Assembly: GCF_004010195.1 (NCBI RefSeq)
Contig: NC_057718.1
Location: 60,506,137-60,570,136, forward strand
Source: Chiloscyllium plagiosum
Taxonomy: Eukaryota
DNA: 64,000 bases
Direction: 5' to 3'
Shown here: positions 14,981-56,403 of the stretch, in pieces
Position numbering within the stretch: the first letter of the stretch is position 1
Layout of the letters: each line of letters starts with the position of its first letter
Made by a program: the position numbers and the translations under genes
Notes under the pieces: generated by a model
What the model saw: only the letters and a program-made list of their open reading frames with translations
What the model was told of the DNA's origin: nothing
The model's database searches: none

Positions 14981-15173
14981 TAAACTGAAAGAACTGTGGA
15001 TGCTGTAAATCAGAAACAAAAACAGAAATTGCTGTAAAAGTTCAGCAGGTCTGGTGGTATCTGTGGAGAGAATTCTGAGTTAACATTTCTGGTCCAGTGA
15101 CCCTTCCTCAGAACTGTATGGATTTCTCTCCACAGATGCTGTCAGACTTGCTGAGCTTTTGTAGCAATTTTTG
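14981..15173. mobile_element. Short Penelope-derived inverted-repeat element
   Basis: Left arm aaattgctgtaaaagttcagcaggtctggtggtatctgtggagaga is complementary to right arm tctctccacagatgctgtcagacttgctgagcttttgtagcaattt; related to the Penelope end at 17980-18110. Confidence 0.8.
15078..15115 (-). ncRNA. Minimal type I hammerhead ribozyme motif
   Basis: Minus strand AGUU-CUGAGGA-agGGUC(acug)GACCa-GAAA-U-GUU-AACU: core CUGANGA/GAAA, stem I AGUU/AACU, stem II GGUC/GACC. Confidence 0.7.
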
Positions 15174-15454
15174 TTAAAATCTTTACTATTCACCTACGAA
15201 TGTTAAAATTACTTGTAACCTCTGCAATAACCTCAATGTTGAACTTTCTACTCTTTCTGCCCAATTCAGAGACTAATCCACACATCTGTTTTGTCTTAAC
15301 TTTTGTCTTTTTGAACTAACCTCTTAATTCTTATGTATGTGTAGAGTGTTATATTACTAATTGCTTTCATGTTAATCCAGTAAAGCTTTGTTAATTTAAC
15401 TCATTTTAAAACGTGCATTCATTCATATTTACGAGAAAGGTATCCAGAAATGAT

Positions 15455-17376
15455 TATATCTGCAGGAAGTGTCTTTGTTTGCAAATTCCATCAATATCGC
15501 ATGGATTGGTTGGTGTGGCAGCTCGAGGCAATGAGAAATTTACAAGACCTAGGGAGTGTGATGAATGGTAGTTAAAGGAAGGGAGAAAAGCCACAGATAC
15601 AGTCAGGTCGATGGATTGACTCCAGGAAAGGTAGGAGGGGTAGTCAGGTAATGCATGAGTCTCCTGTGGCTATCCCCATTTCAAACAAGTATGCTGTTTT
15701 GGAAAATTTAAGGCTTGATGGACCGTCAGTGCAATGTAGTATCAACAGTAAGGTTTCTGGTACTGAGGCTGGCTTGAGTGTAATGAAGAGTACATCAGAT
15801 TCCAAGAGATTGTGATACAGGACTCTCTCGTCAGAGGCACAGATTGATGTTTCTACAGCAACAGCAAAAAATCAGAATGGTGTGTTGCCTCCCTGTGCCA
15901 GGATCAAGGATGCCTCAGGGAGGGTGCTGAATGTTCTCAAGGGGGAGAGGGACCAGCAGGAGGTCATTGGATACATTGGAACCAATGACATACGAAGGGA
16001 AAAAGATGAGATTCTGAAGGGAGAATATAACAAGTTAGGCAGGAATTTAAAAAGGAAGTCCTTGAGGGTAGTAATATCTGGATTACTCCCAGTGCTATGA
16101 GCTAGTGAGGGTCGGAATAGGAGAATGGAGATGAATGCACGGCTGAGGAGCTGGTGTGTGGGAGAAGACTTCACATTTTCGGATCATTGGAATCTCTTCT
16201 GCAGTAGAAGTGCCTGTACAAGAAGGATGGATTGCACCTGAATTGGAAGGGGACTAATATACTGCCAGGTACATTTGCTAGAGCTGTTCAGAAATATTTA
16301 AACTAATAAGATAGAGGGGTGGGACCCAGGGAAATAGTGAGGAAAGAGATCAATCCGAGGCTGGTACAGTTAGGAAAAGGAGCGGGTCAGTCAGAAAAGA
16401 CAGAGACAAAGCAGAGAACAAGGTAGGACTGATAAATTAAACTGCATTTTTTAATGCAAGAGACCAAACAGGGAAGACAGATGAACTCAGAGCATGGTTA
16501 GGAACACAGAATTGGGATATCATAGCAATTACAGAAACATGGCTGAGGGATGGACAGGACTGGCAGCTTAATGTTCTAGGATAAAAATGCTACAGGAAGG
16601 ACAGAAAGGGAGGCAAGAGAGGAGGGGGAATGGTGTTTTTGATAAGGGATTGTCTTACAGCTGTACTGAGGGAGGATATTCCTGAAATACATCCAGGGAA
16701 GTTATTTGGATTAAACTGAGAAATAAGAAAGGGATGATTACATTATTGGGATTGTATTATAGATCCCCTAATAGTCAGCGGAAATTGAGAAACAAATTTG
16801 TAATGTGATTTCAGTTATCAGTAAGGATAATAACGTGGTTATGATAGGGGATTTTAACTTTCCAAACATAGACTGAGACTGCCATAGTGTTAAGGGTTTA
16901 GATGGAGAGGAATTTGTTAAGTGTGTACAAGACAATTTTCTGATTCAGTATGTGGATGTACCTACTAGAGAAGGTGCAAAACTTGACCTACTCTTGGGAA
17001 ATAAGGCAGGGCAGGAGACTGAGGTGTCAGTGGGGGTCAGCGACCATAATTGTATTAGTTTTAAAATAGTGATGGAAAAGGATAGACCAAATCTAAAAGT
17101 TGAAGGTTTAACTTGGAGGAGGCCTCAGTTTGTTGGTATTAGGCAGAAACTTTCAAAAGCTAATTTGGGGCTGATGTTTGCAAATGATTTGGATATGAAC
17201 ATAGGAGGTATAGTTAGTTAGCAAGTTTGCAGATGAAACCAAAATTGGAGGTTTAGTGGGCAGTGAAGAATGGTTACCTCAGATTACAACAGGATCTTGA
17301 TCAGATGGGCCAATGAGCTGAGCAGTGGCAGATGGAGTTCAATTTAGATAAATGCAAGGTGCTGCATTTTGGGAAA
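15455..17376 (+). mobile_element. CR1 LINE: ORF1 esterase, APE domain, large internal deletion near 17182, short RT C-terminal piece, cut off by a Penelope element
   Basis: YIGTND and DGLHL (about 16225) esterase motifs; APE motifs ITETW, GDFNFP, LDLLL, SDH; direct jump to NDLD..FADE..LQQDLD. Confidence 0.9.
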
Positions 17377-18110
17377 CCTGTGCCCACACCTCCTCCCTCA
17401 CCTCCATCCAAGGCCCCAAAGGAGCCTTCCACATCCATCAAAGTTTTACCTGCACATCCACCAATATCATTTATTGTATCCGTTGCTCCCGATGCAGTCT
17501 CCTCTACATTGGGGAGACTGGAAGCCTCCTAGCAGAGTGCTTTAGGGAACATCTCTGGGACACCCACACCAATCAACCACACCGCCCTGTGGCCCAACTT
17601 TTCAACTCCCCCTCCCACTCAGATGAGGACATGGAGGTTCTGGGCCTCCTTCACTGCCGCTCACTCACTACCGACGCCTGGAGGAAGAACACCTCATCTT
17701 CCACCTTGGAACACTTCAACCCCAGGGCATCAATGTGGACTTTACCAGTTTCCTCATTTCCCCTTCCCCCACCTCACCCCAGTTCCAAACTTCCAGCTCA
17801 GCACTGTCCCCATGACTTGTCCAACTGCCTATCTTCCTTCCTACCTGTCCACTCCACCCTCCTCTCTGACCTATCACCTTCATCCCCTCCCCCAATCACC
17901 TATTGTACTCTATGCTACTTTCTCCCCACCCCCACCCTCCTCTCATTTATCTCTCCATCCTGCAGGCACTCTGTCTGTATTCCTGATGAAGGGCTTTTGC
18001 CCGAAACGTTGATTTTCCTGCTCCTCGGATGCTGCCTGAACTGCTGTGCTTTTCCAACACCACTCTCATCTAGACTCTGGTTTTCAGCATCTGCAGTCCT
18101 TGTTTTTACC
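17377..18110 (+). mobile_element. Penelope-like element 3' part: GIY-YIG endonuclease remnant plus terminal repeat
   Basis: FTCTSTNIIYCIRCSRCSLLYIGETGSLLAECFREH..PVAQLFNSPSHS, a GIY-YIG with the PLE CxxC; pyrimidine-rich tract; terminal ...gcatctgcagtccttgtttttacc. Confidence 0.92.
17978..18015 (+). ncRNA. Minimal hammerhead ribozyme motif in the Penelope terminal repeat
   Basis: auuc-CUGAUGA-a-GGGC(uuuu)GCCC-GAAA-C-GUU-gauu; stem II perfect, stem I imperfect. Confidence 0.68.
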
Positions 18111-18769
18111 ATAGAGAAAGGGAGCCCGTTCATCCATTCTTGATTTGGATTTTAACAATTTGGAGTACTCTGTCTGGAATGATAATAAATCTGGAACCTG
18201 AGCCGGGTTCTGAACATAATAAATTGGGAGTTCTTGCCATGATTTAAACCCACAGGCAAAACAAAAGAATTTGAGTGAGTAAATGATCACTTTGAAATCA
18301 GTTTTAAAATGAGAAAAAACTTCAAAAGACTTCCTGACTTAGGACTGCTACAATGGGAAATGTCTGCATTCAATGCCAACTTGTTCCTAGCAGAATTAAT
18401 GGATGTCACTTTTGAGAATTTAAATATTCTGATCCTCAAGCAGTGAAAAGATTTAGCGAGGCACTTGCTTTAGAATTTTACCAGAACACCAAAAAAACCC
18501 AAAATTTTCAAAGGTGTCGGCTAATAGTTTACAATGACGACTGAGGATGACGCAAAATTTAGAATAATGGTTGGGAGATTAAAATTGAAGCTGCATAAAT
18601 TAGAATTTCAAGGTAAAGTGAAGGAATTAGGAAAAGAGGGAGAAAATTCAAAAAGTGGAAAGAGTATTACAAGGAACATGCTGAAGCCACAATTATTTGC
18701 AGTGACCTCATCAGGAAAGTGAATGCGCTGTCGACAAATTTGAGGATAACACAAAAATAGGTGAAAAGG

Positions 18770-20574: not shown

Positions 20575-20915
20575 AGATTAGATTAGATTACATTAGATTA
20601 GATTAGATTACATTACAGTGTGGAAACAGGCCCTTCGGCCCAACAAGTCCACACCGACCCGCCGAAGCGAAACCCACCCATACCCCTACATTTACCCCTT
20701 ACCTAACACTACAGGCAATTTAGCATGGCCAATTCACCTGACCCTGCACATCTTTGGACTGTGGGAGGAAACCGGAGCACCCGGAGGAAACCCACGCAGA
20801 CACGGGGAGAACGTGCAAACTCCACACAGTCAGTCGCCTGAGGCGGGAATTGAACCCGGGTCTCAGGCGCTGTGAGGCAGCAGTGCTAACTACTGTGCCA
20901 CCGTGCCGCCCACAA
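20575..20915 (-). mobile_element. Young tRNA-derived SINE (HE1-type) with 13-bp target-site duplication
   Basis: Minus strand gggcggcacggtggcacagtagttagc (A box)...ggttcaattcc (B box); CR1-like tail; (agatt)n microsatellite; TSD attgggattttca at 20562-20574 and 20916-20928; CpGs retained. Confidence 0.93.
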
Positions 20916-20920
20916 ATTGG

Positions 20921-20960
20921 GATTTTCATGGTGACTTGTTGATTTTCATGGTGACTTGTT
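20921..20960. repeat. Perfect 20-bp tandem duplication overlapping the right SINE TSD
   Basis: gattttcatggtgacttgtt x2. Confidence 0.9.
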
Positions 20961-22135: not shown

Positions 22136-23058
22136 ATCATTGAAGAAGACTCTTAGGGTTAAGATGTACGCACATTTGGAAAAATATGGACTTATTAGTG
22201 ATAGGCAGCGTGGTTTTGTGTGGGGAAGGTCAAGTCTCACAAAGTTGATTGAGTTTTTTGAGAAAGTGACAAAAATAATTGATGAAGTAAGGGTAGTAGA
22301 CATTATCCATATGGACCTTTGCAAGGTCTTGGACAAGATCCCTCATAGCAGTTCGATACAAAAGGTGAGGTCATGTGGGATCTGCGATGAACTGGTAAGA
22401 TGGACACAGAACTGGCTCAGTCATATCAGACAGAGAGTTGCAGTAGAAGGATGTTTTTCTGACTGGAGATCTGTGACCAGTGATGTTCTGTGGCGATCAG
22501 TACTGGGACTCTTGTTGTTTGTAATATACATAATGAATTAGAGGAGAATATTTATGGTTAGTAAGTTCACAGAACTTACAAAGAATAGGGGAGCTGCGTA
22601 TAGTGAGCAGGATTGCCAGAGGATACAGCAGAATATAAATAGACTGAAGCCTTGGTGGAGAAACGGCAGATGGAGTTTAATCTGGACAAATGTGATGTGA
22701 TACATTATCACTGGTCACAGATCTCCAGTCAGAAAAAAACGTCCTTCTACTGCAACTCTCTGTCCTATATGACTGAGCCAGTTCTGTGTCCACCTTACCA
22801 ATTTTTCGCTGATCCCAAGTGACCTCACCTTTTGTATCGACCTGCTATGAGGGATCTTGTCCAAGGTCTTGCAAAGGTCCATATGGACAATGTCTACTAC
22901 CCTTACCTCAGCAATAAGTTTTGTCACTTCCTCAAAAATATCCAATCAACTTTGTGAGACTTGACCTTCCCTATACAAAACCATGCTGCCTATCACTAAT
23001 AAGTCTATATTTTGTCCAAATGTGTGTACATCTTAACCCTAAGAATCTTCTTCAATGA
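22136..23058. repeat. Inverted repeat of about 345 bp (22136-22483 vs 22707-23058) with a spacer of about 225 bp
   Basis: Plus ORF 22140-22541 and minus ORFs 22715-22945 and 23005-23241 encode the same RT segment (LRVKMYAHL..DLCKVLDKIPH..WTQNWLSH). Confidence 0.92.
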
Positions 23059-24541: not shown

Positions 24542-27500
24542 TTACTCTTCCCTTCTACAGAAGTAACGTAAAACTTGCAGAATTATGGTCCCTGTTCCTG
24601 AAATGCTCCCCAACTGAAACTTGGATAACCTGCTCAGACTCATTCCACAATACCAGGCCCCTTCCCCAGTTGGACTATATACATATTATTTCAAAAAGCT
24701 GTACTGGACACACCTTACAAATTCTCTCCCAGCAAGACCTCTGGCATTGAGTGAGTCCCAATCAATGTTTGGGAAGTTAAAGCTACCAACCACAACAACC
24801 ATATGGCTTTCCCACCTTTCCATAATCTGTCCGCATACCTGTTCCTCTATCACCTGCTGTTGGGAGACCTGTAGTACAATCCCAAAGTGTTTGTGCCCTT
24901 CCTATTCCTGAGCTCTACCCATTTACCCTTTATGCATGAGTCCTCCAAGGTGCTGTCCCTCTGTACAGTTATGATATTTTCCCTTATCAATAACACAACT
25001 ACCCCAGCTCTTTTACATCCCTCTCTATCTCACCTGAAACATCTAAATTTCAGCATGTTAAGCTGCAAGTCTTGCCCCTGTCTCAACCAAGTCTCTGTAA
25101 TAGTTACAACCTCATAGTTACATGTATTAATCCAAGCTTTAAATTCATCTGCCTTACCTTATATACGTCTCACATTAAAACCAATACACCTCAGACCACC
25201 AGTCCTGTCATGTTCAGCAACCTCTCCCTGTCAGTTCTCCCTCTTAGTCTCACTGATCTTAGTTTCTAACTCCTTCTTATGTAATTTTATTTGCTGACCT
25301 ACTGCTCTAGTTCCCATTCTTCTGCCATGCGAATTTAAACCCGCCGTATGTGGCACTTGCGAACCTTCCTGGCAGGATATCTGTGCCCCTCCAGTTCAGA
25401 GGAGAACACATTTTCACCCCTCCAGTTCAGGTCCAACCTGTCCTTCTTGTACAGGTCCTACTTGCTCTGGAAAACATCCCAATGATCCACCTACCTGAAG
25501 TTCTCTGTCCTATATATCTGTAGCCACATATTAAGTGTACTAGCTTCCTATTACTGTTCTCACTAGCACGTGGCACAGGAAATAATCCCAAGGTTACAGA
25601 TCTACAGGTCCTGCTTTTCAACTTGCTATCTAACTCCCTGAAATCCCATCACAGCCTCTCATCTTTCTTTCTACATATGTCGTCAGTACCAATATGGACC
25701 ACAGCCTCTGGTTGCTCACCCTTCCCCTTCAGAATGTTCAGTGCCCTCTCAGAGACAGCCTTTTCCTGGCACCAGGGAGGCAACACACTATCCTGGAATC
25801 TTGCTTGCTGCCACAGAAACCACTCTCTGTGCCCCTGACTACAGACTCTCTTATCACTACTGCTCACCTACACTTTGACCCTCCCTGCTATACAACAGTG
25901 CCAGTCATAATGCCAATCACTGTTGCTCCGGTTTTTCTCTAAGAGGCCATCATCCCCAACAGTATCCAAAGCAGTATACCTCTTTGAGAGGGGAATGGAC
26001 ACAGGGGAATTCTACACTGCCTGCCCACGCTTACTCATCTTCCTGGTGGTCACCCAACTCATGTCTGTCTGTGTGGACATTACTGGTGGTGTGACCAGAT
26101 CACGAAATGTGCTATTGATGACATTCTCAGCCTCATAGTGAGTCCACCTGCAGCACTAGGCACTCTATGTGGCAAATCAGGAGCTGCAGCTGAACACATT
26201 TCCTGTCAACTACATGGTCAACTACAAACAATAATCCAGGAACTGACTACACAACTTTACCCACTAGTCGCTTACTCTCACTCTCGATTCCTAGCTGACT
26301 ACAACTACAAAAAGTGTGTACATTATCCCTTCCCAGACAATACTCATTTAGTCTGGTTCCTGGGGAGCCAAGCCTGGGTCACTTTTTGAGTCATGACATC
26401 ACTTCTGGGATCCGCCCCAGATTCACACTGACAGACCCAGTTCCTCACATATTTATCCTGCTGCTGTTATTCACCCCCTGATTTACTCTCCCTCACTCTG
26501 TTGCTGCTGTTGTCACTGGTTAGACATACCGAGCAGGTGGCCAGTGGATTAGCTAACAATTTGTTAACTGTCTGTCTAAGTTGGTTGTCAGGTAGCTGCG
26601 CTGGATGAGTCTTATGATTTGTGATAACATGTTTCCAAGTGGAAGATCTCACAAAGGCAACCAAATAATGGAGCAGGGTAATGGAAGGGAGGCAGAGTAG
26701 AAAAGCACATCATTTCGATAGGCCTGACCTACAAAAATCTCCTGAGGCTGAGGACAGAATGATAGCTGGATGTCCATAGATGGAACTATCAATGCAGTAT
26801 TGTGGTATGAGCACTGATTGATTGATTAACCCTCAGGACTGCAGACTGGTGCTTGAAAACCTTCAGTGACCTGATAAGGACATTCAAGAAGGTCCTTGTT
26901 TTGTCTTATTAGGAAGTATACTGGAAAATAGGGAGACCATGGAGACAGTAATCTGCTTGAACGTTTCAGGTGACATTGTGTAGGCCTCTCATCTGTAGGC
27001 CTGCTCTACATCTGTTTCTGAGTTGGTGATTGAAATTATGAGTCATTTCTGGAGGGGATATCCCTGGTTATCAGCCAGCCAGGCTATGACCCATTGGCCT
27101 AACTGAAATAGAAGTGGGACATAGTATTCTCCCTGACTATTAGCATCATGGTTTGCCTGAGTGAGTTTGTCGCAAGGCAGGTCGGGTGCTGGGGCAGACC
27201 AACCAACATAGGACCCTGATTTTAATACAATAGCAAGGTTTATTTTTTTAAATACTACCACTGCCTGTCCTGGAAGTTACGCTTCCTGGACAGAATGGAC
27301 TCATGCGTAGCAGGTCGTATTTGACTCATTAATATGATATATCTTCAGAAAGAAACAAGTTAGGCTCGATAGAAACATAGGTCCTGATATCCTCGAACAC
27401 TGAAATGAAAAGGATGCAAAACAGTGAGGTCTCATTGTTGTAAAATTTACACCTATTAATTATCTTTAGTTATTTCTTGCATGTTAATGTATTGTGAATT

Positions 27501-30500
27501 ATCGTGCATATAAGATGTTTGTCGAAACATCAAATTGCAAGTTACAACATGGTACTTGTTATTCAGCTTCCTGTCCCAGATCGTCCTCACAGATAATCTA
27601 AAACTATATGGAGATGAATCTGTAAAAAAAAACTAAGTTCACACCATTTTAAAACTATAAGTTATATTGAACAGCATTTTAAATAATAATTAAAGATGGC
27701 AAAGGACTGTGCTTTTGTAGCAATTTCAAGTCAATGAAACAATTGTGTATGAGCTTTAAGTGTAAAAATAATCAGGTTCCCTACTGTCACCACTTATCTC
27801 AACTGCAGACAGCAATCTTTAAGATGTGAATTGAGTTCCCATCTAGCTGGAAGTTACTTATTTTATCCATTTCTGTTTTATTGAAGGGGAAAAAAAAAGT
27901 TCAACTGTGAGGGCCTGACAGTAATTAGCACAAGCTAGACATTAACAAACAAAGATTAGAACTAAGCTACAAATGGCACGTAGCCATGAGCAGAATGGTT
28001 ATAGGGTGCTTTTATCCCTCATGAATGTGAACATTAGATTAATAACATTGTTTAACAAAGTGCTGCATGCATTCTCTTATGGCATTCATTATCAAATCTT
28101 AAATCTGTGCAGATTTCTGAAAATGACTTTTAAATGTTAGAGTATTGTAGGAAAGGAGGCTTGATTTGCTAGTTGGGAGATCTTGCTGTGAGGTTTTAAT
28201 GAAAGATCATAGTGGCCCTACAAGGATCTTCAAGAAGCTATGGTCCCAGTAAAGCTTGAAATAATCTGTTTTACTTTTAATGGCAAGCATTTTATATTCA
28301 TTAGGATCAAAATGCCGTTTTGCAAGCAAATTGCAAAGCTATTCTACTCACAGCTTGAGAACCTAGAGGCCCTACAGCTTTTTTCATCCTGTTCATAAAT
28401 GCGCATGCTGTTAATATCCTAAATATGCTTTATTGCTCAGTGCCTTACATGCACTGTGTACTGTTATATGACATGTTTACAAGTTGCAAGGGCTAACATT
28501 ATGTTTAAAAAAATGCTAAGGCTCCCTTGAAATGCACAAATGCTTTTTTTTCTGTCTGGCACAGATGAAGGAATTTGATAACCTTTCTTTGGGTCTTAGG
28601 GTAAGTTGAATATGTCTGGTCTGCCATGACACAATTTAATAGGCTTCTGAAAACACTCAAAAGGCAGACACAAATGTGTGGATGGGCAACAAGCCAGAGT
28701 GACCTGGGGGATGGGTCCAGTCTGGGAGGGTAAGGTTGTGATGGAATGCCGAGGACAAAGCTTGTCAGGATTGTGCTTTCACAGCCTGTGAGCCGAGTGC
28801 TTACTTCACCAGACTTTCCTGCCTTAAATACAACTGTTCTGTTTGGTAGTTAAACCAGCTTAGACTTGCCATAACCATATCAATGATTCACTTTTCTTTC
28901 ATCTGTTGTCGAACTTTACAACACTTTGATGTGAACTCTTTGCACACTTAAAAAAATCTTTATGCTTTTTTACCTTATCAAAAAAATCCATTATTACCCT
29001 GCTGTGATTCGCCTTTCCTATTGAAGGGAGTTTAATTTCTTTGAAATCCATTTACCAGTATTAATGGTCTAAGACTCCATTAAAATATGATTTTAGAAAT
29101 GTATTGCTATCCTCCTTTTACTTTACGTTTTTGAATAATCTTTTTTTCCTCCCTCCTCTTGAATGTATTGTTGCTTTCTGTAGTTTGGTTTGTAATTGAA
29201 CGTTTTCCTCTGAAATACTTTGCCGGAATAGCATGTCCTGAGTCGTGATGTCAACAGGCTATTCCAACATGGAGGGCATCACAGCTCAGCCTGATCCTAT
29301 TCTCAGCTAAAGGCTTTACATAGGCAATTTCAGCAGAGAAAACCCGAGTTGATTTTTATCACACTTAGCTGAGACCCTGACTACTACTTTGGCTGAAATC
29401 AGCTATTTTAGAGCCAATCTGGTATTGAATCTGAGATCATCTTGATACATGGTGGAGGACCACACAGAGTGATGCACTGATCTATAGCACAGCCTCAGGG
29501 AAGCTGAGTTTGTTTTTTTTTAAATGGTGTATTTATTCCTGCAACATTGTCTCTGCTAACAGTGAAGTGATGGGAAATAATTCAACCTTGAGCATATTTG
29601 CCCTGTACAGAATTTCCCTTTCTCTAAAGTTCACCTAGTTAAATGAAAGCTTTGTTTCTCTAACAAACATGTAAACTGCACTTCATTGTATCAGCATTGT
29701 AATGTATGCATTCCTGTTCAAGACACTTTATCCAGAGTGCCAGGTTTAATGGTAACAAATAACACAATTTCTGTCTGCTTAGACAACAGAAATCAATTCC
29801 CTTATTTTATGAAAACTGTGTTTTTAATATTTTTCATATGTTTCCATTTAGCAAGCTGGATAACAAAACAGAATGAATAACACAATGGATATCATCATCA
29901 AATTTTAATAGTACAGCATTCTGTGATAATAAAGCATTAAAACTAGTCTTATTTCCTTCTGATACTTTCTTGGGTTATATATGGGATAGTGGACACTAGG
30001 GAGTATGACACAAGGCTGCAATCGGTTGTGATTTATTGTTATTTTGTTGAGGTGTTGGTGACCAGAGAAACTTCTCCGAGGAGCTAAGTGGTGAGCAGGT
30101 GCTCACCAGAGAATTGGTGACAGCACCAAATGTTGCAGTCAGGGTATAATTAGTATGTTACTGGGTGCTGGTATTCTAAATCACACATATTTGTTCTGTG
30201 ACCTGATACTGAAGTATGCTATATAGTGTTCAGCACTTTATTTCTTGCAACATATTAAATTATGACTTCCGGATTACAGATAATATTACATTGCATTTCA
30301 ACAATTCAATTAAATTTCATTACCTTTCCCTTTTGTAAATAGATTCCATTGTACTTGTTCAGGACATTATCGTGTATAATTAGAACCTATAACCAAAAGC
30401 TTGGTGAGAGAATTGGAATTACATCAATCAGCATATTCTGTTTTTTCTTGTTTTTCTCCTCACTTGCCAAACAAATGCAATTCATACCTTTCCCTAATTC

Positions 30501-39110: not shown

Positions 39111-39274
39111 ATAATGGTATTTCTACTTTAACCTGAACCATGATAAATTGGAAAACGGCCGACATGAACTAAATCAATATAGTCACTGATCACATTGTGG
39201 ACATGCCTTGTGGTTCTGACTGACCCCACACTATTCCTGGAACAACTTGACATTTGATGGATATTCTGGAATTT

Positions 39275-39880
39275 CTGAGATTATGCCCTCTAGTCCCAGA
39301 CTCTTTATCAAGGGGAAACAACACTTGCCCACCTTTCCCCTGAGAATCTTGTATGTTTCAATAAAGTTGTCTCTCATTCTTCTACATTCCAATGCTTGCA
39401 GGCACAACCTACCCAACCTCTCCTCAGAACAGTCCCGCCATGCCTGGTAGGAGAAAATGAGAACTGCAGATGCTGGAGATCAGAGCTTAAAAATGTGTTG
39501 CTGGAAAAGCGCAGCATGTCAGGCAGCATCAAAGGAACAGGAGAATCGACGTTTCGGGCTTATGCCTGAAACGTCAATTCTCCTGTTCCTTTGATGCTGC
39601 CTGATCTGCTGCACTTTTCTAGCAACACATTTTTAACCCCATGCCTGGTATCACCCAAGTTAACCTTCTCTGGACTGTCTCCAATGCCAGAATATCTTCC
39701 TTTAGATAAGGCACCCAAAACTATTCACAGTTTTCCAGCTCTGGTCTTGATTACTACCTTGATTCATTTTAACAAAAATCTCTATTTTTATAACTCCATT
39801 CACTTCAAAATAAAGGCCAACATTCCATTTGCTTTCCCTATTGCTCGCTGACCTTGAATGCTAGCTTTTTGTGATTCATG
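39275..39880 (-). mobile_element. CR1 3' fragment interrupted by a palindromic insert
   Basis: ORF 39231-39416 (LECRRMRDNFIETYKILRG); ggccaacattccatttgc (KANGML) near 39820. Confidence 0.82.
39450..39638. mobile_element. Penelope-derived near-perfect hairpin element with 12-bp TSD
   Basis: Arms 39487-39559 and 39564-39636, loop ttat; TSD ccatgcctggta at 39438-39449 and 39639-39650. Confidence 0.92.
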
Positions 39881-42636: not shown

Positions 42637-42948
42637 TTAGATTAGATTACTTACAGTGTGGAAACAGGCCCTTCGGCCCAACAAGTCCACACTAACCCGC
42701 CGAAGCGCAACCCACCCAGACCCATTCCCCTACATTTACTCCTTCACCTAACACTACGGGCAATTTAGCAGGGCCAATTCACCTAACCTGCACATTTTTG
42801 GATTGTGGGAGGAAACCAGAGCAAACCCACGCAGACACAGGGAGAACGTGCAAACTCCACAGAGACAGTCGCCTGAGACGGGAATTGAACCCGGGTCTCT
42901 GGCGCTGTGAGGCAACAGTGCTAACCACTATGCCACCGTGCTGCCCCA
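42637..42948 (-). mobile_element. HE1-type tRNA-derived SINE
   Basis: Highly similar to 20575-20915 throughout, including the (agatt)n tail. Confidence 0.93.
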
Positions 42949-43264: not shown

Positions 43265-46200
43265 ATAGTGGAGAGCAACTAGATGGCAGGTAGTTGCTCG
43301 GTTCCGGTGGAGACTGTCCCATCAATACAGATCCCTCCTGTTTCAAAACTGATGCCAATGCCCCATGGAATAGAACCTCTCTTTCCCACACCACTCCCTT
43401 AGCCAAGTGTTTATACTCATTCCATGCTGCTGCTGCTCCAAGGCAGATAGGGAGATCCTGAGTTCAGGAATCGAGGACATTATCCAACAGGTATGAGATA
43501 CTTGCTCCCTGTAAGGATGAGGAAAAGGGTTACAGGGAGGATGAGCCAGCTGATCATGGCACCATGGTGCAGGAGGCCATTCAAGAGAGGAAGCCAAAAG
43601 GTAAGTGATAGTTGTGGGGGATTCTATAATTAGGGAGACTGCATCCTTTGTAAGCTGAATCAAGAGTCCCACATGGTATGTTGCCTGCCTGGTGCCAGAG
43701 CGTGGGACATCTCTGACTGTCTTGAAAGGATATTGGAATGGGAGGGCGAGGACCTAGTTATTGTGATCCACGTTGGACAAACGACATAGCAAGGCTAGGA
43801 AAGAAGACCTTATCGAGGATTATCAAGCATTAGGAATGAAATTAAGGAACTGGTCCTCAAGGGTTATAATCTCTGGATTATTGCCCAAGCCACATGCAAA
43901 GTGTCTTAGGGATAAGAAAATTAAGGAAGTAAGCACATGGCTAAGGGAGTGGTGTGGGAAAGAGGGGTTCCATTTCATGGGTCATTGGCATCAGTTTTAG
44001 AACAGGCAGGATCTGTACTGATGGGACGGTCTCCACCTGAAAAAATCGGGAACCAGTGTTCGCGTGAAAAGTATAAATAGGGTGGTCACTAGGATTTTCA
44101 ACTAGTGAGTCGGGGGCAAAGGAAGGGGAAAACAACAGGAAGTATGGTGGTAAATAAAAAGGAAAGCAATAGGTTAACATGTGTGCAGGAGAGTTTAACT
44201 ACATGACTATGAAAGAAGTAGAAAGGAAGGATAACTCAGAAGATATTATTATTGGAGGTGTTGTAATTCTTAAAGACGGTACAAAAACTAGCACAAAGGC
44301 ACTTTCCCTTAGTGCTTGTAGCATTTGTAACAAGTTAGATGAGTTAACGGCACAAATCATCGCAAATGAATATGATTTTGTAGACATTGCAGGATGGGAA
44401 ATAAGGGAGGTGGTGTAGCTCTGATATACAAGGACAACATCAGGGCAGTAGTGAGAGATGATACAGGTACCATGGAGAATAAGGCTGAATCCATTTGGGT
44501 GGAAATTAGAAATTCTAAGAAGAAAACATTACTGATGGATATAGTCTATAAGTCGCCAAATAATTATGTCACATTGGGGGCGGGTGATAAGCAAAAAAAA
44601 AAACTTATGCCTAAAGAAATGGTACAGCAATGATCATGTAGATTGGTCAACCCAGCTTGGTCAGGGTAGCCTTGAGGAGGAGTTCATTGAATGTAACCGC
44701 AATAGTTTTCTTGAACAGTATGTCATGGAACCAACGAGGGAACAAGCTATCCTAGATCTGCTGCTGTGTGATGAGACAGGAATAATTAATGATGTCATAA
44801 TTAGGCATCCTCTTGGAAGGAGTGATCACTGTATGGTAGAATTTAGAATAAAGATGGAAATTGTGAAGATAAACTCCAATACCAGGGTCCTGTACTTAAA
44901 CAAGAGTGACTACAATAGGATGAGGAAGGAGTTGGCTAAAGCAGACTGGAAGCAAAGACTTTATGGTGGGACAGTTGATGAACAGTGGAGGACTTACAAA
45001 GCAATTTTTTGAAGTGCTCAGCAAAATATATACCAGTGAAAAGGAAGGAGTGTAGGAAAAGGGGTAATCTGCCATGGAAATAAGGGAGGCTATCAAATTG
45101 AAAGAGAAGGCATACAAAGTGGTCAAGATCAGCTGGAAACTAGAATATTGGGAAAGCTTTAAAGGTCAACAGAAAGCCAGAAAAAGAGCAATAAAGAAAA
45201 GTAAGATAGATTATCAGAAAAAAACTAGCTCAGAATATAAAGACAGACAGCAAAAGTTTCTATAATTATGTAAAACCAAAAAAAGAGTAGGTAAAGTAAA
45301 TATTGGTCCTCTAGAGGATGAGAAGGAGGATTTAGTAATGGGATATGAAGCACTGAATAGGTACTTTGTGTCGGTCTTCACAGTGGAGGAAATGAATAAC
45401 ATACCAGTGATTGACAAAGAGATGAGGGTAGGCGAGGCCCAGGAAACAATCATTATCATGAAAGAGGTAGTGTTGGACAAGCTAATGGAGCTGAGGGTAG
45501 ACAAGTCTCCTGGCCCTGATGGAATGCACCCCAGGGTGCTAAAACAGATGGTGGGAGAAATAACAAATGCGCTTGTGATAATTTTCTAAAATTCACTTGG
45601 ACTCTGGACAGTTCCAGCAGATTGGCAAATGTGATGCCACTGTTTAAAAAGGGAAGTAGGCAAAAGATGGGGAAGTATAGACTAGTTAGCTGAACTGTAG
45701 TGGGAAAATGCTTGACTCTTATCAAGGAAGAAATAGCAAAGTGTCTAGATAGAAATTGTCCCATTGGGCAGACACAGCATGGGTTCATGAAGGGCAGGTC
45801 ATGCTTCACTGATCTTTTGGAATTCTATGAAGACATTATGAACACAGTGGACAATGGGGGCCCAGTAGATATGGTGTATCTAGTTTACCAAAAGACATTT
45901 GACAAGGTGCCACACAAAAGGCTGCTGCATAAAATAAAGATGCAAGGCATTACAGGCAATATATTAGCATGTACAGAGGATTGGATGACCAACTGGAAGC
46001 AAAGAGTGGGAATAAGTGAGTGCTATTCTGGTTGGCAATCAGTGACTAGTGTATGTTTCAGGGATCAGTGTTGTGACCACAATTATTCACAATTTATGTT
46101 GATGATTTGGAGTTGGGGACCACATGTAATAGGTCAAAACTTGCAGATGGCACTGGTATAACAAAGTGTGCAGAGGACTGTGAAACCTTGCATTGGGACA

Positions 46201-47062: not shown

Positions 47063-47935
47063 GTAACAATTCTTGGTATGAAAGTCAGAGTGGGTACCTG
47101 GCAGCTTCAGGTCACTGTATACTCTTCTAGTCCCCAATCTTTGCCAACAGTCCCTTAACCTCAGACTGTATGTGCAACAATCACCCACGACTTCTGTCCA
47201 TGGAGATTGGCATCAGGCGCACGTGACTACATCATCATGGGACATTTCCAATTCACTTAGAATACAGTTATCCACTTCAATGCTGCACTAACATTGTCCA
47301 TTGCAATGCTGCTGCCAAACCTTTTGTGTACAGGGCAGCACTGACCTCATGGACTGGAGCAGGGTATCAATCAAAGCTCTTTGTTTTCTCAGTTGGTGTT
47401 TATACTCTGTGGTTACTTGGATACGCACAGCATCCCCGCCTTACTTTGTCTGTTTGCACATTGACACATCATTCCATATATACAGGCTCTTCATTCTTCT
47501 GTCCTTCTTTGCTTCTTAGCCAAATTCACCCAGTCATGGGGTCAGTTCCCACACAATCCCCAGCTTTATTTCTCACTGTTACTTGTGACCACTCCACAGT
47601 CTTCATGCTGCCATGGAACACTGATGCATTCCTCCAAGTAAACATTCTATGAGAACCATGGCTTGACCACACACCTTACATCTTCCTCCCAGTCACAATC
47701 CTGTTGACCTTCCTTCCTGTCCACTATCTCAACCTAAATCAGAGAGTTCACAACCTCAGAATCTATTGAGTTATTTGAATGTCTTAGCTGAGCTTCCAAC
47801 TCTATTAAACTTCATCAGGTAGATTCCATACGTTCAGCTCCATGAGGCTGCCAATCCCCACTGCATACCTGTTTCTGAAACCCCTCATCCATGCCTTAAA
47901 TCATCTCCAGATACAGCCACTATAGTGCTCCCCTG

Positions 47936-48117
47936 CAAACAAAAAATGCTGGAAATCACAGCAAGTCAGGCAGCATCCAATGAGAGACACCAAGCTAACA
48001 TTTCAGATCATTCTTCATCAGAGCTGAAGACAGATGCTGTCTGACCTGCTGTAATTTCCAACAATTTTTGTTTTCAGTACAGATTCCAGCATCTGCACTA
48101 ATTTGCTTCTACATCAC
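47936..48117. mobile_element. Short Penelope-derived inverted-repeat element with 9-bp TSD
   Basis: Arms aacaaaaaatgctggaaatcacagcaagtcaggcagcatc and gatgctgtctgacctgctgtaatttccaacaatttttgtt; TSD gctcccctg at 47927-47935 and 48118-48126. Confidence 0.85.
47993..48025 (-). ncRNA. Minimal type I hammerhead ribozyme motif
   Basis: Minus strand AGCU-CUGAUGA-AGA(auga)UCU-GAAA-U-GUU-AGCU; stem I perfect, 3-bp stem II. Confidence 0.7.
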
Positions 48118-48813: not shown

Positions 48814-48994
48814 TGTTGATTGAGAACTGTCCCATTTCCCATAAACCTCGTCCACAGACCTTGTGAAATTGACACGTTTGTTTATTTCACAATATCGTGG
48901 GAAGAGGTCAATGACCGCTCAGCTCGGAATGGTCGCTCAGCGCTGATGAGTCATAACGTCTCCGCTCAGCTACAGGCGTATACAGTTTATAAAT
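48814..48994 (-). mobile_element. Partial ERV LTR (TATA-R-polyA-U5), probably the 3' LTR
   Basis: Minus strand TTTATAAA (48986-48993), AATAAA (48881-48886), ends ..ttctcaatCAACA; the U5 matches the U5 in front of the PBS at 51802-51858. Confidence 0.75.
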
Positions 48995-49320
48995 GATTTG
49001 GAGGAGCCAGTGTAGGACTGGGGTGTACAAAGTTAAAAATCACACAACACCAGGTTATAGTCCAATAGGTTTATTTGGAAGCACTAGCTTTCGGAGCGCT
49101 GCTCTTTCATCAGGTGGTTGTGGAGTAAAAGATCGTAAGATACAGAATTTACAGCAAAGGTTTACAGCGTGATGCAACTGAAATTACATGTTGAAGAAGA
49201 CCTGGATTGTTTGTGAGTCTCTCATCTTTTAGAATGACCATGTTGGTTTCATTTCTTTCATTTGTAAATTTCACAACTTAGATTCGATTTCTAAAAAAAA
49301 AATGAATCCATGTAAAATAC
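48995..49320. mobile_element. Penelope-like terminal fragment of a second family, sitting where most of the ERV pol/env is missing
   Basis: gatttggag..ggactggggtgtacaaagttaaaaatcacacaacaccaggttatagtcc..; partial second copy at 60010-60087; carries a hammerhead motif. Family assignment rests mainly on that motif. Confidence 0.7.
49082..49116 (-). ncRNA. Minimal type I hammerhead ribozyme motif
   Basis: Minus strand CAC-CUGAUGA-aaGAGC(agc)GCUCc-GAAA-G-CUA-GUG; stem I CAC/GUG, palindromic AGCU stem III, CUA cleavage triplet. Confidence 0.75.
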
Positions 49321-50030
49321 AGTGCATATAACGTGATGCTCTTTGTATACCCTTGGGGAAGCCAGGTCCATGTATATTAGCAGCTGCCATAAGTAAAGGC
49401 AAAGTAAAGGCTGTCAGGAGACAATGTGATGGAGAAAAAGGCTGAACAGAGGTCCATTGTGGAAAAGCAAGTGGCAGAGGCCGGGAGACTACTAAGAATG
49501 TATTGGTGTCCAGTACTGATGAGGAGCAGGGGACAACAAAAACATTTACGGCCCTTAGGTCCTGAATGAAACGGCACCTTCCCGGTTTCCCTGGTTTCAG
49601 GATTGGAAGTATGCAGTATTACAGGGACTGGTGGTAGGTATCAAAATGCCTTAGTGTAGGAGGGAGTCTATAACAGGTTTGATTCCCTCTGTTGCAGCCG
49701 GCGCAGAACAGCTCCCTGCTTAACCTGCTTCTAAGGTAAGACCCCGGGGATAGCAGTGAATACAGGCATTTAATTTACAAAGGGTTTGATGGTCCAAAAG
49801 GACCACTAGACAGGATGCGGAAATGATAGCTGCGTCGGCGACTGTGACTGGTCTGGCGCTAATGGGCACTGCATTAGAAAGTGGTTCTGTCATGGGTTCT
49901 CCAGAGACACCTACAGTGCGGACAGTATTGGAACTGAGGGGAAGGTCCGCAGAGGGAGCTGTAGACGAGTGTGTGGCTCTAGAGTCCACAAAAACTGAAA
50001 TGAGGCAATCCCCCACTTCTACGTCCATCA
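49321..50030 (-). pseudogene. pol: Endogenous retrovirus protease plus N-terminal RT (class I, epsilon-like), disrupted
   Basis: VFVDSRATHS (aspartic protease DS/TG, mutated); then EGIKPVIDSLL*GILIPTTSPCNT-LPILKPG..RFIQDLRAVN..DLCSAFFSI..FAFTY..YTWTWLPQGY, with stops and frameshifts. Confidence 0.9.
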
Positions 50031-50099
50031 TGGGATTTTCAGATGGGGAGTGTGAGAGACGTATCGAGGGAGCCTGCAAACCTCCCTCCTGTGACAGCC

Positions 50100-51550
50100 C
50101 TAGGCTTTTGGGGCACAGGGAATGGGTCGTCTGCAGTAAAGGCAGCCTGCTGAGGCTGTCTTTGTTGAGGAGCATGATTTTGCTGGAAAAGTGAAGGTGG
50201 TGTATGGGTGGAAGCCTTCGATGACCTCTGAGGGCCCGCTAACCAACAATCTCTTTCCCACTGACCCAGTTTGCCGCATGCCCTACAAGTATTCCCATGT
50301 CGCTGTGCCTGGCCTTGGCTTTTACCCTGATTCCATGGCTGCATGAGCTGAGGGTATGCCTCCTTCCCTCTCTTACATTCAAACAGTCCCTGTCAGTCTA
50401 AATTTTTGAGAGTGCATGTATCTCCCCACATGGCTGCTTGCCAGGTTAGTTTGTGGAATATGTAGACATGAGCATATCAGGGCAGCATGCATTTTACAAG
50501 GGTCTGCACTGCTGATTTACCATTCTCTGACAATGGGATGCCCGCTGAGGACTCCCAGTCATCTTTGAAGTAGGTAGTGAAATCGGAGATGGGCTCATTA
50601 GATTTTTGCAGGCAACAGGTAACTTGCCCGGATGCAGTGATAGCATTCTAACGTTATTCACAAGCCAGGTGGAGCGTGCAGGTGCATTAGCCCATGGCTC
50701 ATCAGGGAATTCAATGGAGGTCCTCACAGTTGTCCAGTGAGACCCATATGCTAACTGCAGTAAAGTCTGGACGTCCTGCCATCAGTAATTGTAGATATCA
50801 CAAATTTGTAGTAGCCAATTGAAAGGTGCTTTAGCACCTCATGGGCATCCTGGAACATGCCTTGGACCTCAGCGTGAGTCCAGGGCTTGTTGAGAGGTGT
50901 AGTGCCCATCATAATGCTGGGGTGCTGGCTATTGAGGGTCTGGGGCTTTGAAGTAGCAGCCGCACTATGAGTAAGTCTGGTGTTGGAAGTGGGATTGGTG
51001 CCCACTTGATCTGGGTGTCCTGTCCCTGACATGCTTCCTACAACTGATGCCTCCGAAATCCCCTGCTTTGCGATACCAGGGGGTGTGGAAGGACGCACGG
51101 CAACAAATACAGCAACCTCACTTACTAGCGGGTCTGGCTTCGGAGCTGGGAAAGGAACTTCAGGACATTGAGGGGTATATGGTGGTGTGGCAGTGGGTGG
51201 GGAATTAGACGATGCAGAGGTGTTTGAAAGCTGACAGCGACCTTCATTTTTAGAGGGCTGGTGCCCTTTCACGACTTCCTTAACCTTTTCTAAGCATTGA
51301 ATCCTTTTGTCATTGTCCCAAGAGGGGTCACTGTATCCACCCTCAAAATGCCTTCTCCAGTAGTCCATTTTCTCCAATTTAAAGGAGCCCCCATAAGGCC
51401 AATTTCCATAGGGCCACCCATATAAATCGGAGGTGAAGGGAATACCATATCTACTGTCACTTGTTTCCTTCCGTACTGTGTCAGCCGGTGACCCTGGTGT
51501 TACCAGAGGATCTCCTACCTTGTTCTTGCAGCATACGTGTTTACCATCAT
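50100..51550 (-). pseudogene. gag: Endogenous retrovirus Gag (matrix, proline-rich region, capsid, zinc knuckle), disrupted
   Basis: PGSPA..WPYGGSF (matrix-like), TPPY-containing proline-rich segment, PWTHAEV (capsid start), CRACGKLGQWERDC (CCHC knuckle with H>Q). Confidence 0.85.
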
Positions 51551-51801
51551 GCTTTTGTGTCCACCGTGAGAGAGTCAGTGGATGCAGACCGCCCACCTCA
51601 GCGGGACAAGTTAGACTTGCCCCCCAGGGACAGTCCTTCTCCCGAGGATTTCGAGTTCTGCAACCCCATTTACTTGTGACCAGTCGAACGGGAAACAAAA
51701 AACAGATAACAACACGAACCACCACAGACAGGACGAACATGTGAAAAAAGCACTCAGGACAAAACACTGGACAAATGAACAAGACAAACACAGGCACCCT
51801 G

Positions 51802-52190
51802 GTCAATTTCACAAGGTCTGCTTACAAGGTTTATTGGAAATGGGACATTTCTCCAACAGTTTGGTATAGTTGGCAGGATCCCTTGTTCACAACAGGGCTC
51901 CAGAGCAAACCTAAATGTTTAAGAATTTGGCCAATTGCGTGATCCTGACCTGAGCCAGCGGGCAGATCCTAAGTTGGGGATAGATGCTACAGCAAGACGC
52001 AAGACCGGAAAGATTGCCTCTCTACATTTCTAAATTTTTCTAAATTTTTTCCTAAAATTCAGCTGACTGCATAGCCCCACCCTGAGCCAACAGGCTGATC
52101 CTAAGTTGGGAAGTGACGCCAAGGCAAGACGGGACCTTGGAAAGACCGCTGCTGAGCAGTAATTCATGTTCAAAATGGTTTCCCTTCTCC
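51802..52190 (+). mobile_element. ERV U5-PBS-leader block, oriented opposite to gag
   Basis: U5 (46/52 identical to the reverse complement of 48822-48873) ending CAACA, then the PBS, then about 70-bp direct repeats at 51949-52018 and 52081-52150. Confidence 0.75.
51862..51879 (+). promoter_or_regulatory. Primer-binding site complementary to the tRNA-Ser 3' end
   Basis: tggtatagttggcaggat vs TGGCGTAGTCGGCAGGAT: 15/18, all three mismatches at CpG positions; begins after a 3-nt gap following the LTR-terminal CA. Confidence 0.85.
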
Positions 52191-52904: not shown

Positions 52905-53283
52905 TGGGGTTATAAAATCATGAGGGGCATGTTTAGGATAAATAGACAAAGTTTTTCCTTTGGTTCGGGGCATCCAGAACAAGAAGACATAGGTTGAGGG
53001 TGAGAGGGGAAAGATAGAAAAGAGATCTAAGGGGCAACTTTTTCATGCAGAGGGTGGTGCGTGTATGGAATGAACTGCCAGAGGAAGTGGTGAAGGCTGG
53101 TACAATTGCAACATTTGAAAGGCATCTGGATGGGTATATGAATAGGAAGGGTTTGGAGGGATATGGGCCAGGTGCTGGAAGACGGGACTAGATTGGGTTG
53201 GGATATCTGGTTGGCATGGACAAGTTAGACCGAAGGGTCTGTTTCCATGCTGTACATCTCTATGACTCTATCTATGACTCTAT
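52905..53283 (+). mobile_element. CR1 3' fragment
   Basis: Matches 1210-1580; ends tctatgactctatctatgactc. Confidence 0.92.
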
Positions 53284-53319
53284 ATTATCAGAATTCTGAG
53301 AAACTAAGCTCCCACCCAA

Positions 53320-53797
53320 GCCACTCACCATCCAGACCTGGAAATATACCACTGTTTGTTCACTGTAGCAGTGTAAAAATCCTGGAATTCCACCCCCACC
53401 ATTGTGGGTTTACCTACAGCATATGGACTAAAGTGTTTCATGAAGGCAGTTCACCAACATCTTCTCAAGAGCAGGTAGGGACAGGCAGTAAATGTTGGTC
53501 CAACCAGAAGTGTCCACATCCCATGAGTGAATGAAACAAATGGGAGAATGAGAAAACTTCATGAATATCACTGATTAATTCATAATTGATCACACTCAAC
53601 GCATTATGAGAAAACATTTTACAAATTAGTTTGTTAGTCTTGCTTACAGTGAAACAATTGATGATGCATATGTGGGAGTACTTACATCAGGTAGATGGCA
53701 GCAGTTCAAAAAGGCAGTTCATAACTACCTTCTCAGGGACAAGGAATGCTAGCCTAGTCAGTGGAGACCACATTCCATGAATGAATAAAATAAAAAT
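53320..53797 (+). mobile_element. Two 3'-tail fragments of a further non-LTR element (53320-53540 and 53695-53797)
   Basis: Shared aaggcagttca..cttctca..ccacat.ccatga.tgaa motif with A-rich end; antisense relatives near 38245-38360, 57715-57800 and 62490-63070. Confidence 0.6.
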
Positions 53798-56296
53798 CAT
53801 TCAGAAATACCATACTTGCTTTTTAGTTGTACAATGTATTGATATACTTCATGGGTTAGCATTTTACACTCCACCGCCATTGGGACCAAAGGCAGAGAGC
53901 ACATAACATTTCAACCAATTGGCCTTCCTGCTGCTTGACCTGTCTGAAATGTCATGGGTGCACAAGCAGGTCATTGGGCAACCTGCTCACTTTGGGCCTT
54001 TTCAGATTTTTAAGTGGCCATTTAAAGGCCACATTTTTCACCCTCTTGAATTTTAACTGTGATGGGTGTGGCTCATACCACATAGGAACCCATCCAAAAC
54101 ATTACCTTGTCCTTTACTCCCGTTCAGCCCGCCTCTCAAAGCTGGCTCCTATTATTCTGCACATCCCACACTGATGCCTGCCAGCCTGACCCCACTTGAC
54201 AAGATATGAGAATACATCTGAGTCTGGGCTCCTCTTTGCCTGTACTGGGCAGGGGCCAGGGCCTACTGTGTCCTGTTAAATCCAGCCTCAAGGCATGTTT
54301 TTAGATGTTATGGATGCCTTCAATGATTAAGGATATCCCTCAGGCAATGACTTACTTCATATTATTTATCATAAATATATAAAAAGACTGTTAAATACCT
54401 AATGGAACAGAAGGGAAATGAGGTAGCAAGGAAATATGATTATCTGGTCATAGCACAAAACCAACGGATCGGCTTACTATTATAAAACAAATCTCCTCCA
54501 TCCCCACCTGCTGCAGCCCCATTTCTCTTAGCATTGCGTGTCACTGAAAGGAAATTCAAACAAGGTACATAACAAACTGTCACCGATCTAACTCCCTTCC
54601 TGAAGCTAGATTTCACTCCCAGCCAGTGTTTAAATTATTCATGTAGGGATATTTTTTCTCCTTTGGGCACAACTGATGTTCCAGGAACAAATTGTGCCAG
54701 TTTTGAAGAGTGCTTCTTCTGACCTTCAGTTTCCACTCAAACTCTTTCACGTATCGTCCATCGCAAAATCTATTGTGAATCAGTACAATTGGGCAGCATT
54801 TTAAAAAGATATAGATTTTAATTACAAAAATTTGGCTTAAAGAATAGTCCTTGACATACTTTAGAGTAGTAACTTAGTGCTGGTTAATTACTGCACTGGA
54901 AAATTAGTTTATCAGAGAGAGAAAAAGAACAGTGTTGATCCATAACCTGTGAATAATCAAATTTTGAATGATTGAAAATGAGTTTTAAAAGCATGCAGAC
55001 ATATTTGTCAGTTAGAGTGGGAAATCATAGTCAGTTCTTTAGTGAAAAGTTGTATTAAGGCATTTTAAAACATACCTATTCATATCCTTGGACACAAAAG
55101 AGCCAATTTCATTGTTAGAGTCTCCTTGAAGGCTGGAAACTGAGCAGTTAGAACAAATGCCCTCGCATGATGAATTAAATCTAGGGGAACAGCCAGTGTT
55201 CTGGATGGGATCAACCAGATACTTTTAAATATCTCAACCTGATACTTTTTTTAAAAAAATTGCAGAAACCTGATGTACACTGAGTGGAATTTGTGTTTAA
55301 AATTCTGTGATCTTTCAAGAATGCTAAACTTATTTTATGCAATTTGTAGCAAAAACGCGTCAAGAAATAAATCCAGCAGAAAAGGGCAGCATTTGCCTAT
55401 CATGTTTGTTGTAAAGCAAAAGGTGGGTAAATATACCCTGACTAACAGTTTGTGGTAACGTTTTTTCAACTCAAACACGTTACACGTAAGTTGGAGAAAG
55501 GAAACAAGATTTAGGGGAAGGTCCAACACAAAGTTATTGAACACTTTATCAAGAAAAACAACGTTTACCAGGCTTTACAACAGTACTTCAATTAAACTCT
55601 ATCAAACTGTATTGACCTCTTCACAGGACTCTTCAGTAAATTGTTTTAAATCTCTAAGTAAACAGTCTCGAATCTACATTAGTTATTTACTTCCACTTCT
55701 GTGGATTCGCTATAACCTATTCAAAAGTGCCTATTGCTATTACTGAACTGCGTGCCTGAGAAAGAACTGATAATACCATTCAACAAGCCGATCCTCAGTC
55801 TTTGAGGGTTGGTTGATGCTTCAGGATCTGCAGTCATTGACTTGGACTTCCCCTCTTCTCTAAGGCTGGTTCTAGTGTTGGGGTTGCCTCATTGAGATGG
55901 TCTTCCTGGGTCTGATCAGTCTGATGATGTTCATCACAAGGTACAAGGAGCTGCAGATATTGTAAAGCACGGCTGCCAATTGAAGGTGCTCTTTGGAGAT
56001 GCTATTGATGAAAGCACAAAAAAATCACAGCAAGCTGGAGCTCCTTTTTGCCACTTTTGCGCCCCCCTCCCAACTTTGCATCTTCCTCAACAATTCTGTG
56101 GCCTGTGTCCAAATTTTAAATTATCTTAAACACCTAATTTAGATAATCTCTTTATCTTCTACAATCAACAGCACAATCTTGGTTTACGCACTTTTACCCC
56201 AGTATTATTCTACTGAATCTCTGCTGCATCTACTCCAAGGCCAGTATGTCCTTCATACATTTCAGTCTTGAAAACTGTTCACACAGTATTCCATTT

Positions 56297-56403
56297 GGAG
56301 AAAGTGAGGACTGCAGATGAGGACTGCAGATGCATTCTTCAGGAATGCATCCCGAAGAAGGGCTTATGCCCGAAACGTCGATTCTCCTGCTCCTTGGATG
56401 CTG
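56297..56403. mobile_element. Rearranged Penelope terminal remnant with a degenerate hammerhead core
   Basis: ggagaaagtgaggactgcaga (13-bp tandem duplication), then cCGAAGA-a-GGGC(ttat)GCCC-GAAA-C-GTC-gattctcc. Confidence 0.8.

Follow-up and report, generated by a model that had tools for sequence, protein, structure and literature searches.

Minimal hammerhead ribozymes of Penelope-like elements in Chiloscyllium plagiosum: neutrally decaying copies, most likely of uncleaved RNA

The DNA analyzed here, hereafter the window, is a stretch of 64,000 nt from the 3.56-Gb genome of Chiloscyllium plagiosum (NC_057718.1, positions 60,506,137 to 60,570,136), in which dispersed copies of a minimal type I hammerhead ribozyme (HHR) accompany Penelope-like element (PLE) remnants. 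A sequence-only reading of the window had reported five HHR motifs, and all of them are present where it placed them (Table 1). They represent four PLE lineages, since the copies at 17978 and 56350 both belong to family A. When each copy is read against the consensus of its own family, only that at 17978 is intact, differing from the family A consensus at N17 (C>U) alone. The copy at 15078 has lost the G10.1-C11.1 pair through C11.1>A and also carries C15.2>U relative to the family B consensus, and the copy at 56350 has a broken stem I besides its core substitution. In the family C insertion, a stub on the minus strand (48027-47933) faces an inverted long arm on the plus strand (48033-48107). 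Two remnants without a reported motif (39449-39638 and 60006-60086), as well as inverted arms next to three of the five motifs, had been overlooked. The window is rich in repeats, 42% of it being masked by the loci compared, and CR1-like long interspersed element (LINE) fragments are among them. An extra CUGAUGA..GGAA GCUC motif at 47818 (minus strand), whose stem has five pairs, has no relative in these loci and is probably a chance occurrence or a very old copy.

Table 1. PLE-related features of the window (coordinates are window positions; signed positions are relative to the cut site, taken as 0)
Feature	Position	Strand	Remarks
Family B stub, HHR and long tail	14979..15116	-	Start 34 nt before cut site, end at +103
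Family B minimal HHR, degenerate	15078..15115	-	Predicted cut 15082/15081
Inverted short arm, same insertion as the 15078 stub	15121..15175	+	+7 to +61; folds back onto stub
3' fragment of PLE open reading frame, Neptune-type GIY-YIG endonuclease	17379..17760	+	Set in CR1-like LINE fragment
TATA-like box TTTATC	17946..17951	+	33 nt before putative start 17979; putative promoter role
Family A minimal HHR, intact	17979..18014	+	Predicted cut 18010/18011
Family A tail	18011..18110	+	Two 3' end sites (~+60, ~+100)
Head-to-head family A insertion	39449..39638		Hinge is stem II; without catalytic core; 12-bp target-site duplication
Whole family C head-to-head insertion	47933..48107		9-bp target-site duplication
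Family C minimal HHR	47993..48025	-	6-nt stem II deletion; predicted cut 47997/47996
Family D 3' untranslated region, HHR and tail	48993..49269	-	TATA box (about 49153) mutated in this copy
Family D minimal HHR	49082..49116	-	G10.1>A; AGCU palindrome; predicted cut 49085/49084
Family A stub	56292..56404		Core 56352-56379 with U4>C; inverted tail piece 56292-56319 (minus); 9-bp target-site duplication
Family D stub	60006..60086	-	Start inside core; 10-13-bp target-site duplication

The identification of the motifs as minimal type I HHRs of PLEs, the class described in PMC4209133, is borne out by reverse transcriptase (RT) and GIY-YIG frames that lie ahead of related motifs. The GIY-YIG-like frame about 200 nt upstream of the 17978 motif gives a Pfam match (E=0.051) that falls below the cut-off, but relatives of this element encode an RT with a YIDD motif and a GIY-YIG domain (E=2e-4); the RVT_1 match among these relatives falls on a fused CR1 piece. 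At one locus (L241:412-1902), a frame of 497 codons leads without a break from a CR1-like RT piece into the PLE RT-thumb and GIY-YIG domains, an insertion chimera. Endonuclease ends also precede HHR motifs in families D, E, and F, and an open reading frame (ORF) with RT and C-terminal GIY-YIG domains lies beside the pseudo-long terminal repeat (pLTR) and HHR in families A, D, E, and F. No ORF was recovered for family B or C, while the start of one was recovered for a family with a U3-A8 core swap; the tail is common to families A, B, and C. A CX2-5CxxC linker, which marks Neptune and Nematis elements (PMC8557442), precedes the endonuclease in the A and D frames and is missing from the E and F frames, which are Poseidon-like. 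By the linker in the A and D frames, families A-D would be of the Neptune type. No intact full-length element was recovered, and the long "open frames" encountered are mostly runs of N. The hallmarks of endonuclease-positive (EN+) PLEs, namely 5' truncation, an adjacent inverted copy, and a one-sided tail of 30-40 nt, are all present.

The bare CUGANGA..GAAA pattern is not significantly enriched in the window (10 matches against 6.8 expected; 15 of 100 shuffles reach 10), and an Rfam scan yielded no hammerhead match at E<=10. A strict descriptor of the minimal HHR, which demands the core, at least three pairs in stem II, a paired 15.2-16.2, and UH, matched two of the five window motifs against 0.03 in 100 shuffles, and 39 sites against 0.2 (10 shuffles) in genome stretches taken at even spacing (579,827 bases in all). 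With so large an excess over shuffled sequence, the motif class lies far above chance expectation. The full sample of 140 stretches (1,330,257 bases) contains 97 strict matches and 500 fragments (376/Mb), a density higher than that of the window (10 fragments, 156/Mb). The earlier expectation of a very large genome-wide number is confirmed by exact-pattern counts, which gave 201,687 core-intact motifs against 135 for a reversed control; perfect family A motifs number 59,498 (control 0), compared with 72,000 extrapolated from the sample.

The pairing of the stems varies between subfamilies in a manner that indicates selection on the fold. Clustering resulted in 18 references with 13 distinct HHR haplotypes, and among the latter 45 of 52 cells of stem I, which the descriptor does not demand, are paired, against 25.0 after shuffling. 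For stem II the corresponding values are 51 of 52 and 34.4, and when only the four deep lineages are considered, 27 of 28 cells are paired against 14.2. Real copies behave likewise: in 14 of them, drawn from outside the family D rows and the window rows, 89.9% of cells are paired against 66.5% in shuffles, none of 500 shuffles being as high, and two-sided change is found in 8 of 10 pairs. Two points weigh against this evidence, in that stem II pairing belonged to the discovery descriptor and the permutation tests ignore the relatedness of the copies. Three old consensuses had their CpG sites restored by script, and two copies supply the sequence of one strand of stem I. The G-C pair at II.1 is found in 12 of the 13 haplotypes, although among the window copies only that at 17978 retains the full conserved core, and the loopless palindromic helix III contains CG in nine haplotypes and GC in four. 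The fold covariation between subfamilies is real, and the proposal that the fold was under selection while the lineages were active is upheld by the excess of pairing over shuffles. The compensatory changes originally listed for the window copies survive only in part: covariation exists between subfamily consensuses, whereas the AUGU palindrome is the CpG decay product of ACGU, with TG and CA forms both present in families B and C, and the AGA/UCU stem II of the 47993 copy is an accident of its 6-nt deletion, the family C stem being GAGUC/GACUC. The U3-A8 family, whose core swap counts toward this covariation and which was found via tail homology, has at least 729 exact copies; of 863 relaxed matches, the first 100 comprise 97 with U3-A8, three that differ at position 3, and none with G8. 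This PLE family (loci L270-L281) is young, and a clear TATA box precedes the cluster of its 5' ends by 31 nt. One of its loci (L281) shows a direct partial tandem in the order HHR, tail, ORF start, and HHR, with the two ribozymes 531 bp apart, and is a candidate for a natural dimer.

The 5' ends of short copies gather at the 5' edge of stem I, away from the cut site. With the cut site numbered 0, the 238 family A copies comprise 58 that begin beyond -60, only four at -60 to -38, 110 at -37 to -23, 29 at -22 to -1, four at 0 to +2, and 33 further downstream; the 88 family D copies fall into the same bins as 23, 5, 30, 17, 1, and 12. An exact target-site duplication (TSD) bounds 33 of 163 solo short copies, most of which begin at the same stem I edge. 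In families A, C, U3-A8, and D, the modal start is preceded at a distance of 30-33 nt by a TATA or TATA-like box, whose position in the window (Table 1) is kept in four A subfamilies. A spacing of roughly 30 nt between TATA and start is typical of Pol II promoters. The modal start shifts with the position of the box (-31/-30 in A, -34 in C and U3-A8, and -37/-36 in D), so that it precedes the core by 8-9 nt in D and by 3-4 nt in A. These relations suggest that the edge reflects transcription initiation. Another explanation, which we consider rather unlikely, is that the RT stalls or is released at a protein-bound ribozyme, or that cDNAs are joined there by microhomology. Junctions do frequently use short microhomologies inside the HHR, as in the pair at 39449 hinged on stem II, and starts tail off over -29 to -17; on the other hand, the sharp upstream edge in family A, its sharing by solo TSD-bounded copies, and a mode that follows the TATA box and not the core are not what stalling or joining would be expected to produce.

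Several observations weigh against initiation at stem I. In family A the box, TTTATC, resembles TATA poorly, no TATA box is seen within 62 nt in one subfamily of A and one of E, family B, whose upstream sequence comes from two copies, fits the spacing poorly, and the 5' end cluster is absent in E and F copies. The signal of a cap-derived G is weak, being found in 8 of the 15 solo copies of family A (p=0.03) and not reaching significance in paired copies (6 of 25) or D copies (4 of 14). A comparable cluster could also arise if the RT were arrested, or ends were joined by microhomology, at the edge of stem I, and cleaved RNA that goes uncopied may exist despite the few starts at the cut site. 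As for the cut site itself, the 0 to +2 bins (4/238 in A, 1/88 in D) led us to reject it as a major start class. Genome-wide, the first 100 of 4,845 A copies without the upstream GAAA, inspected by eye, were distributed approximately flat, with 4-10 per position around the cut; the family D set of 737 matches was read in part. A small excess of starts at the cut site may exist, and stem I complementarity itself yields microhomology there. A splice acceptor was also rejected as the cause of the 5' edge: YAG occurs there in B, C, and U3-A8, yet the copies retain the AG, and A and D lack YAG. The long tails of A, B, C, and U3-A8 (window 18095-18113) end with a pyrimidine run and then YAG, immediately ahead of the ORF leader, which is acceptor-like; no conserved splice donor was found.

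The remaining structure of the insertions is that of PLEs. Behind the tail, the AUG of the ORF lies about 135 nt downstream of the cut site, and the 3' ends are located near +60 or +98. Head-to-head pairs combine one long and one short arm in 103 of 112 cases (56 expected, p=1e-21), and TSDs of 8-19 bp flank 95 of 194 such pairs, compared with 4 in a shifted control. Because the stubs are short and abundant with ends that look fixed, and because retrozymes derive from PLE pLTRs (bioRxiv 2026.07.22.740005), they might be supposed to form an autonomous-like family, akin to short interspersed elements (SINEs) or retrozymes, that spread through ribozyme-cut circular RNA. That is extremely improbable: their ends differ from the cut site, and they are colinear with full elements and bear the two-end signature of PLEs. 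Tandem units each with an HHR, by which retrozymes are described (PMC7229834, bioRxiv 2026.07.22.740005, PMC6155905), were not seen, the 254 copies including one direct pair no more than 300 bp apart, and the stubs are not retrozymes because they form no tandem arrays.

Once inserted, the ribozymes decay neutrally. In subfamilies with 10 or more copies, with CpG and polymorphic columns excluded, 74 core changes were counted against 81.4 expected from tail rates, and G12, a CpG position, has changed in 46 of 209 cases compared with 64 of 280 for tail CpG. Two results run counter to neutrality: when polymorphic columns are kept, the core has changed less than the tail (76/1200, 6.3%, vs 388/4618, 8.4%; p=0.02), and two-sided changes keep pairs in 19 cases and break them in five, beside 139 one-sided breaks. 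The small core advantage and the pair-keeping excess probably reflect unresolved subfamilies. In this bulk test, cores of inserted copies were not conserved above neutral, the sign by which host domestication would be recognized; rare single exapted loci may exist.

The sequence-only reading had gone on to suggest that so many motifs amount to latent self-cleavage sites that affect host transcripts. Such cleavage in host pre-mRNAs, which might proceed via chance dimers or host factors, would draw on a large pool, since 201,687 motifs are core-intact and 70 of 268 HHR-spanning sample copies are intact, those that are also fully paired having a density of about 53 per Mb. The copies are, in addition, found in RNA: among single-cell poly(A) reads from a related organism, 2,306 fall on 17700-18200 in both orientations, and 96% of them continue into unlike sequence, so that the copies are transcribed passively. 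The reads show no pile-up of ends at the cut site, in an assay that is weak for cut ends. Besides the neutral decay of the cores, intact same-strand pairs of the same group within a 10-kb stretch are near random (6 vs 3.5 expected, range 0-8), the nearest being 987 bp apart. Of the 70 intact copies, 26 have an adjacent inverted arm and their RNA is predicted to fold as a long hairpin; folding prediction likewise places the three head-to-head elements of the window in long hairpins, and stem I forms at <5% in five of six consensus 5' ends. Moreover, monomers of minimal PLE HHRs fail to cleave in vitro (PMC4209133), and the HHR of an Anolis PLE cuts only with the protein of the element (PMC11167929). 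Latent host cleavage is thus unsupported, given that each copy stands alone, is in decay, or is held in a hairpin; we regard it as quite improbable, and stubs are unlikely to work as cut sites in host transcripts.

The explanation that we consider most likely, with good though not full confidence, is that the motifs are neutrally decaying minimal hammerheads of several PLE families, reverse-transcribed from uncleaved RNA whose 5' end lay at or just before stem I. Transcription would start at stem I, driven by a putative promoter in the upstream 3' untranslated region. The RT-endonuclease would then nick both target strands, reverse transcription would begin at two internal sites of the tail and proceed across the uncut ribozyme as far as the 5' end of the RNA, and joining of the two cDNAs would give the head-to-head insertion. 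The ribozyme itself would be selected in master elements, likely for a protein-assisted or dimeric cut that might remove the capped leader of 31-37 nt or trim tandem transcripts, and the dispersed copies would be inert by-products. A more specific and tentative idea, which we hold to be possible but doubtful, is that the HHR forms the first 35 nt of the Neptune-type mRNA and serves as a protein-triggered decapping switch: protein bound to the tail would induce the cut, the capped leader would be removed and the RNA silenced, only uncut RNA would be copied, and the 200,000 stubs would constitute a fossil map of transcription-start and reverse-transcription-start sites. If that idea is true, the PLE life cycle could be read from the genome.

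Other features of the window are less directly related. Directly upstream of the family D copy, 49271-51821 (minus strand) contains disrupted frames similar to gag, protease, and RT, as in an endogenous retrovirus or LTR element (weak Pfam match to RVP_2, E=0.11). A SINE-like repeat, which we take to be HE1, occurs in three copies (20600-20912, 42638-42947, and 61248-61578). Inverted repeats with arms a few hundred bases apart lie in LINE-like sequence at 22255-22938 (204 nt, 91%) and 43302-44041 (112 nt, 88%). The 13 kb of 26206-39272 are nearly free of sampled repeats and might hold a gene or conserved region; Pfam gave no match in the short frames tested there, nor in 124 of 282 short frames from non-repeat DNA.

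The role of the PLE hammerhead has been called unclear (PMC8557442). Hundreds of thousands of insertion records in this genome indicate that uncut RNA was copied and that its start was likely at stem I; therefore, the cut would fall 31-37 nt behind the cap. The motifs are of a known kind, selected in master elements and neutral debris in the host, which illustrates that a huge load of ribozyme motifs can be neutral for its host. What is added here is the TATA spacing, the neutral decay, and the whole-genome count; the count and the putative start at stem I are the parts most likely to be of use. The literature consulted contained no account of such motifs from cartilaginous fish or of transcription starting at stem I, although subscription papers or supplements may hold one. 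The minimal HHRs of PMC4209133 share with the present ones the core, a bulged base before G10.1-C11.1, the loopless palindromic 15.2-16.2, families with covariation, and mostly single dispersed copies with some opposite-strand pairs, and the U3-A8 core variant is found both here and in Schistosoma; the accessible part of that paper covers neither cartilaginous fish nor a link to transcription start. Its counts of ~4,000 in coelacanth and ~9,000 in Xenopus, like those in PMC7229834, are exceeded by the ~200,000 found here, with descriptors that differ. The non-LTR retrozymes (PMC7229834) also have type I HHRs, very high copy numbers (up to 120,000 in axolotl), and a PLE connection, but they are tandem repeats of 150-450 bp with canonical HHRs and circular RNA, whereas the copies described here are single or inverted and minimal. 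In the Drosophila element, transcription begins upstream, at a distance of 46 nt plus an intron (PMC2377424, PMC4209133), and the pLTR of Adineta Pen2a contains TATA and initiator (Inr)-like motifs (PMC3846280). The Poseidon element PAc of Anolis (PMC11167929), for which unprocessed RNA is the main substrate and both strands are nicked, agrees with the present families in having two internal reverse-transcription starts that bound a 30-40-nt tail, with the HHR upstream of them; its ORF, however, begins within the HHR, in contrast to an AUG far past the cut site here, and it is a Poseidon element, whereas families A-D are putatively Neptune-type. The inverted-pLTR insertions of EN+ PLEs (PMC3846280, PMC8557442) share the head-to-head arms, the one-armed tail, and TSDs of 8-16 bp, but in C. 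plagiosum such insertions have shrunk to stubs of 90-230 bp, which dominate the copy number.

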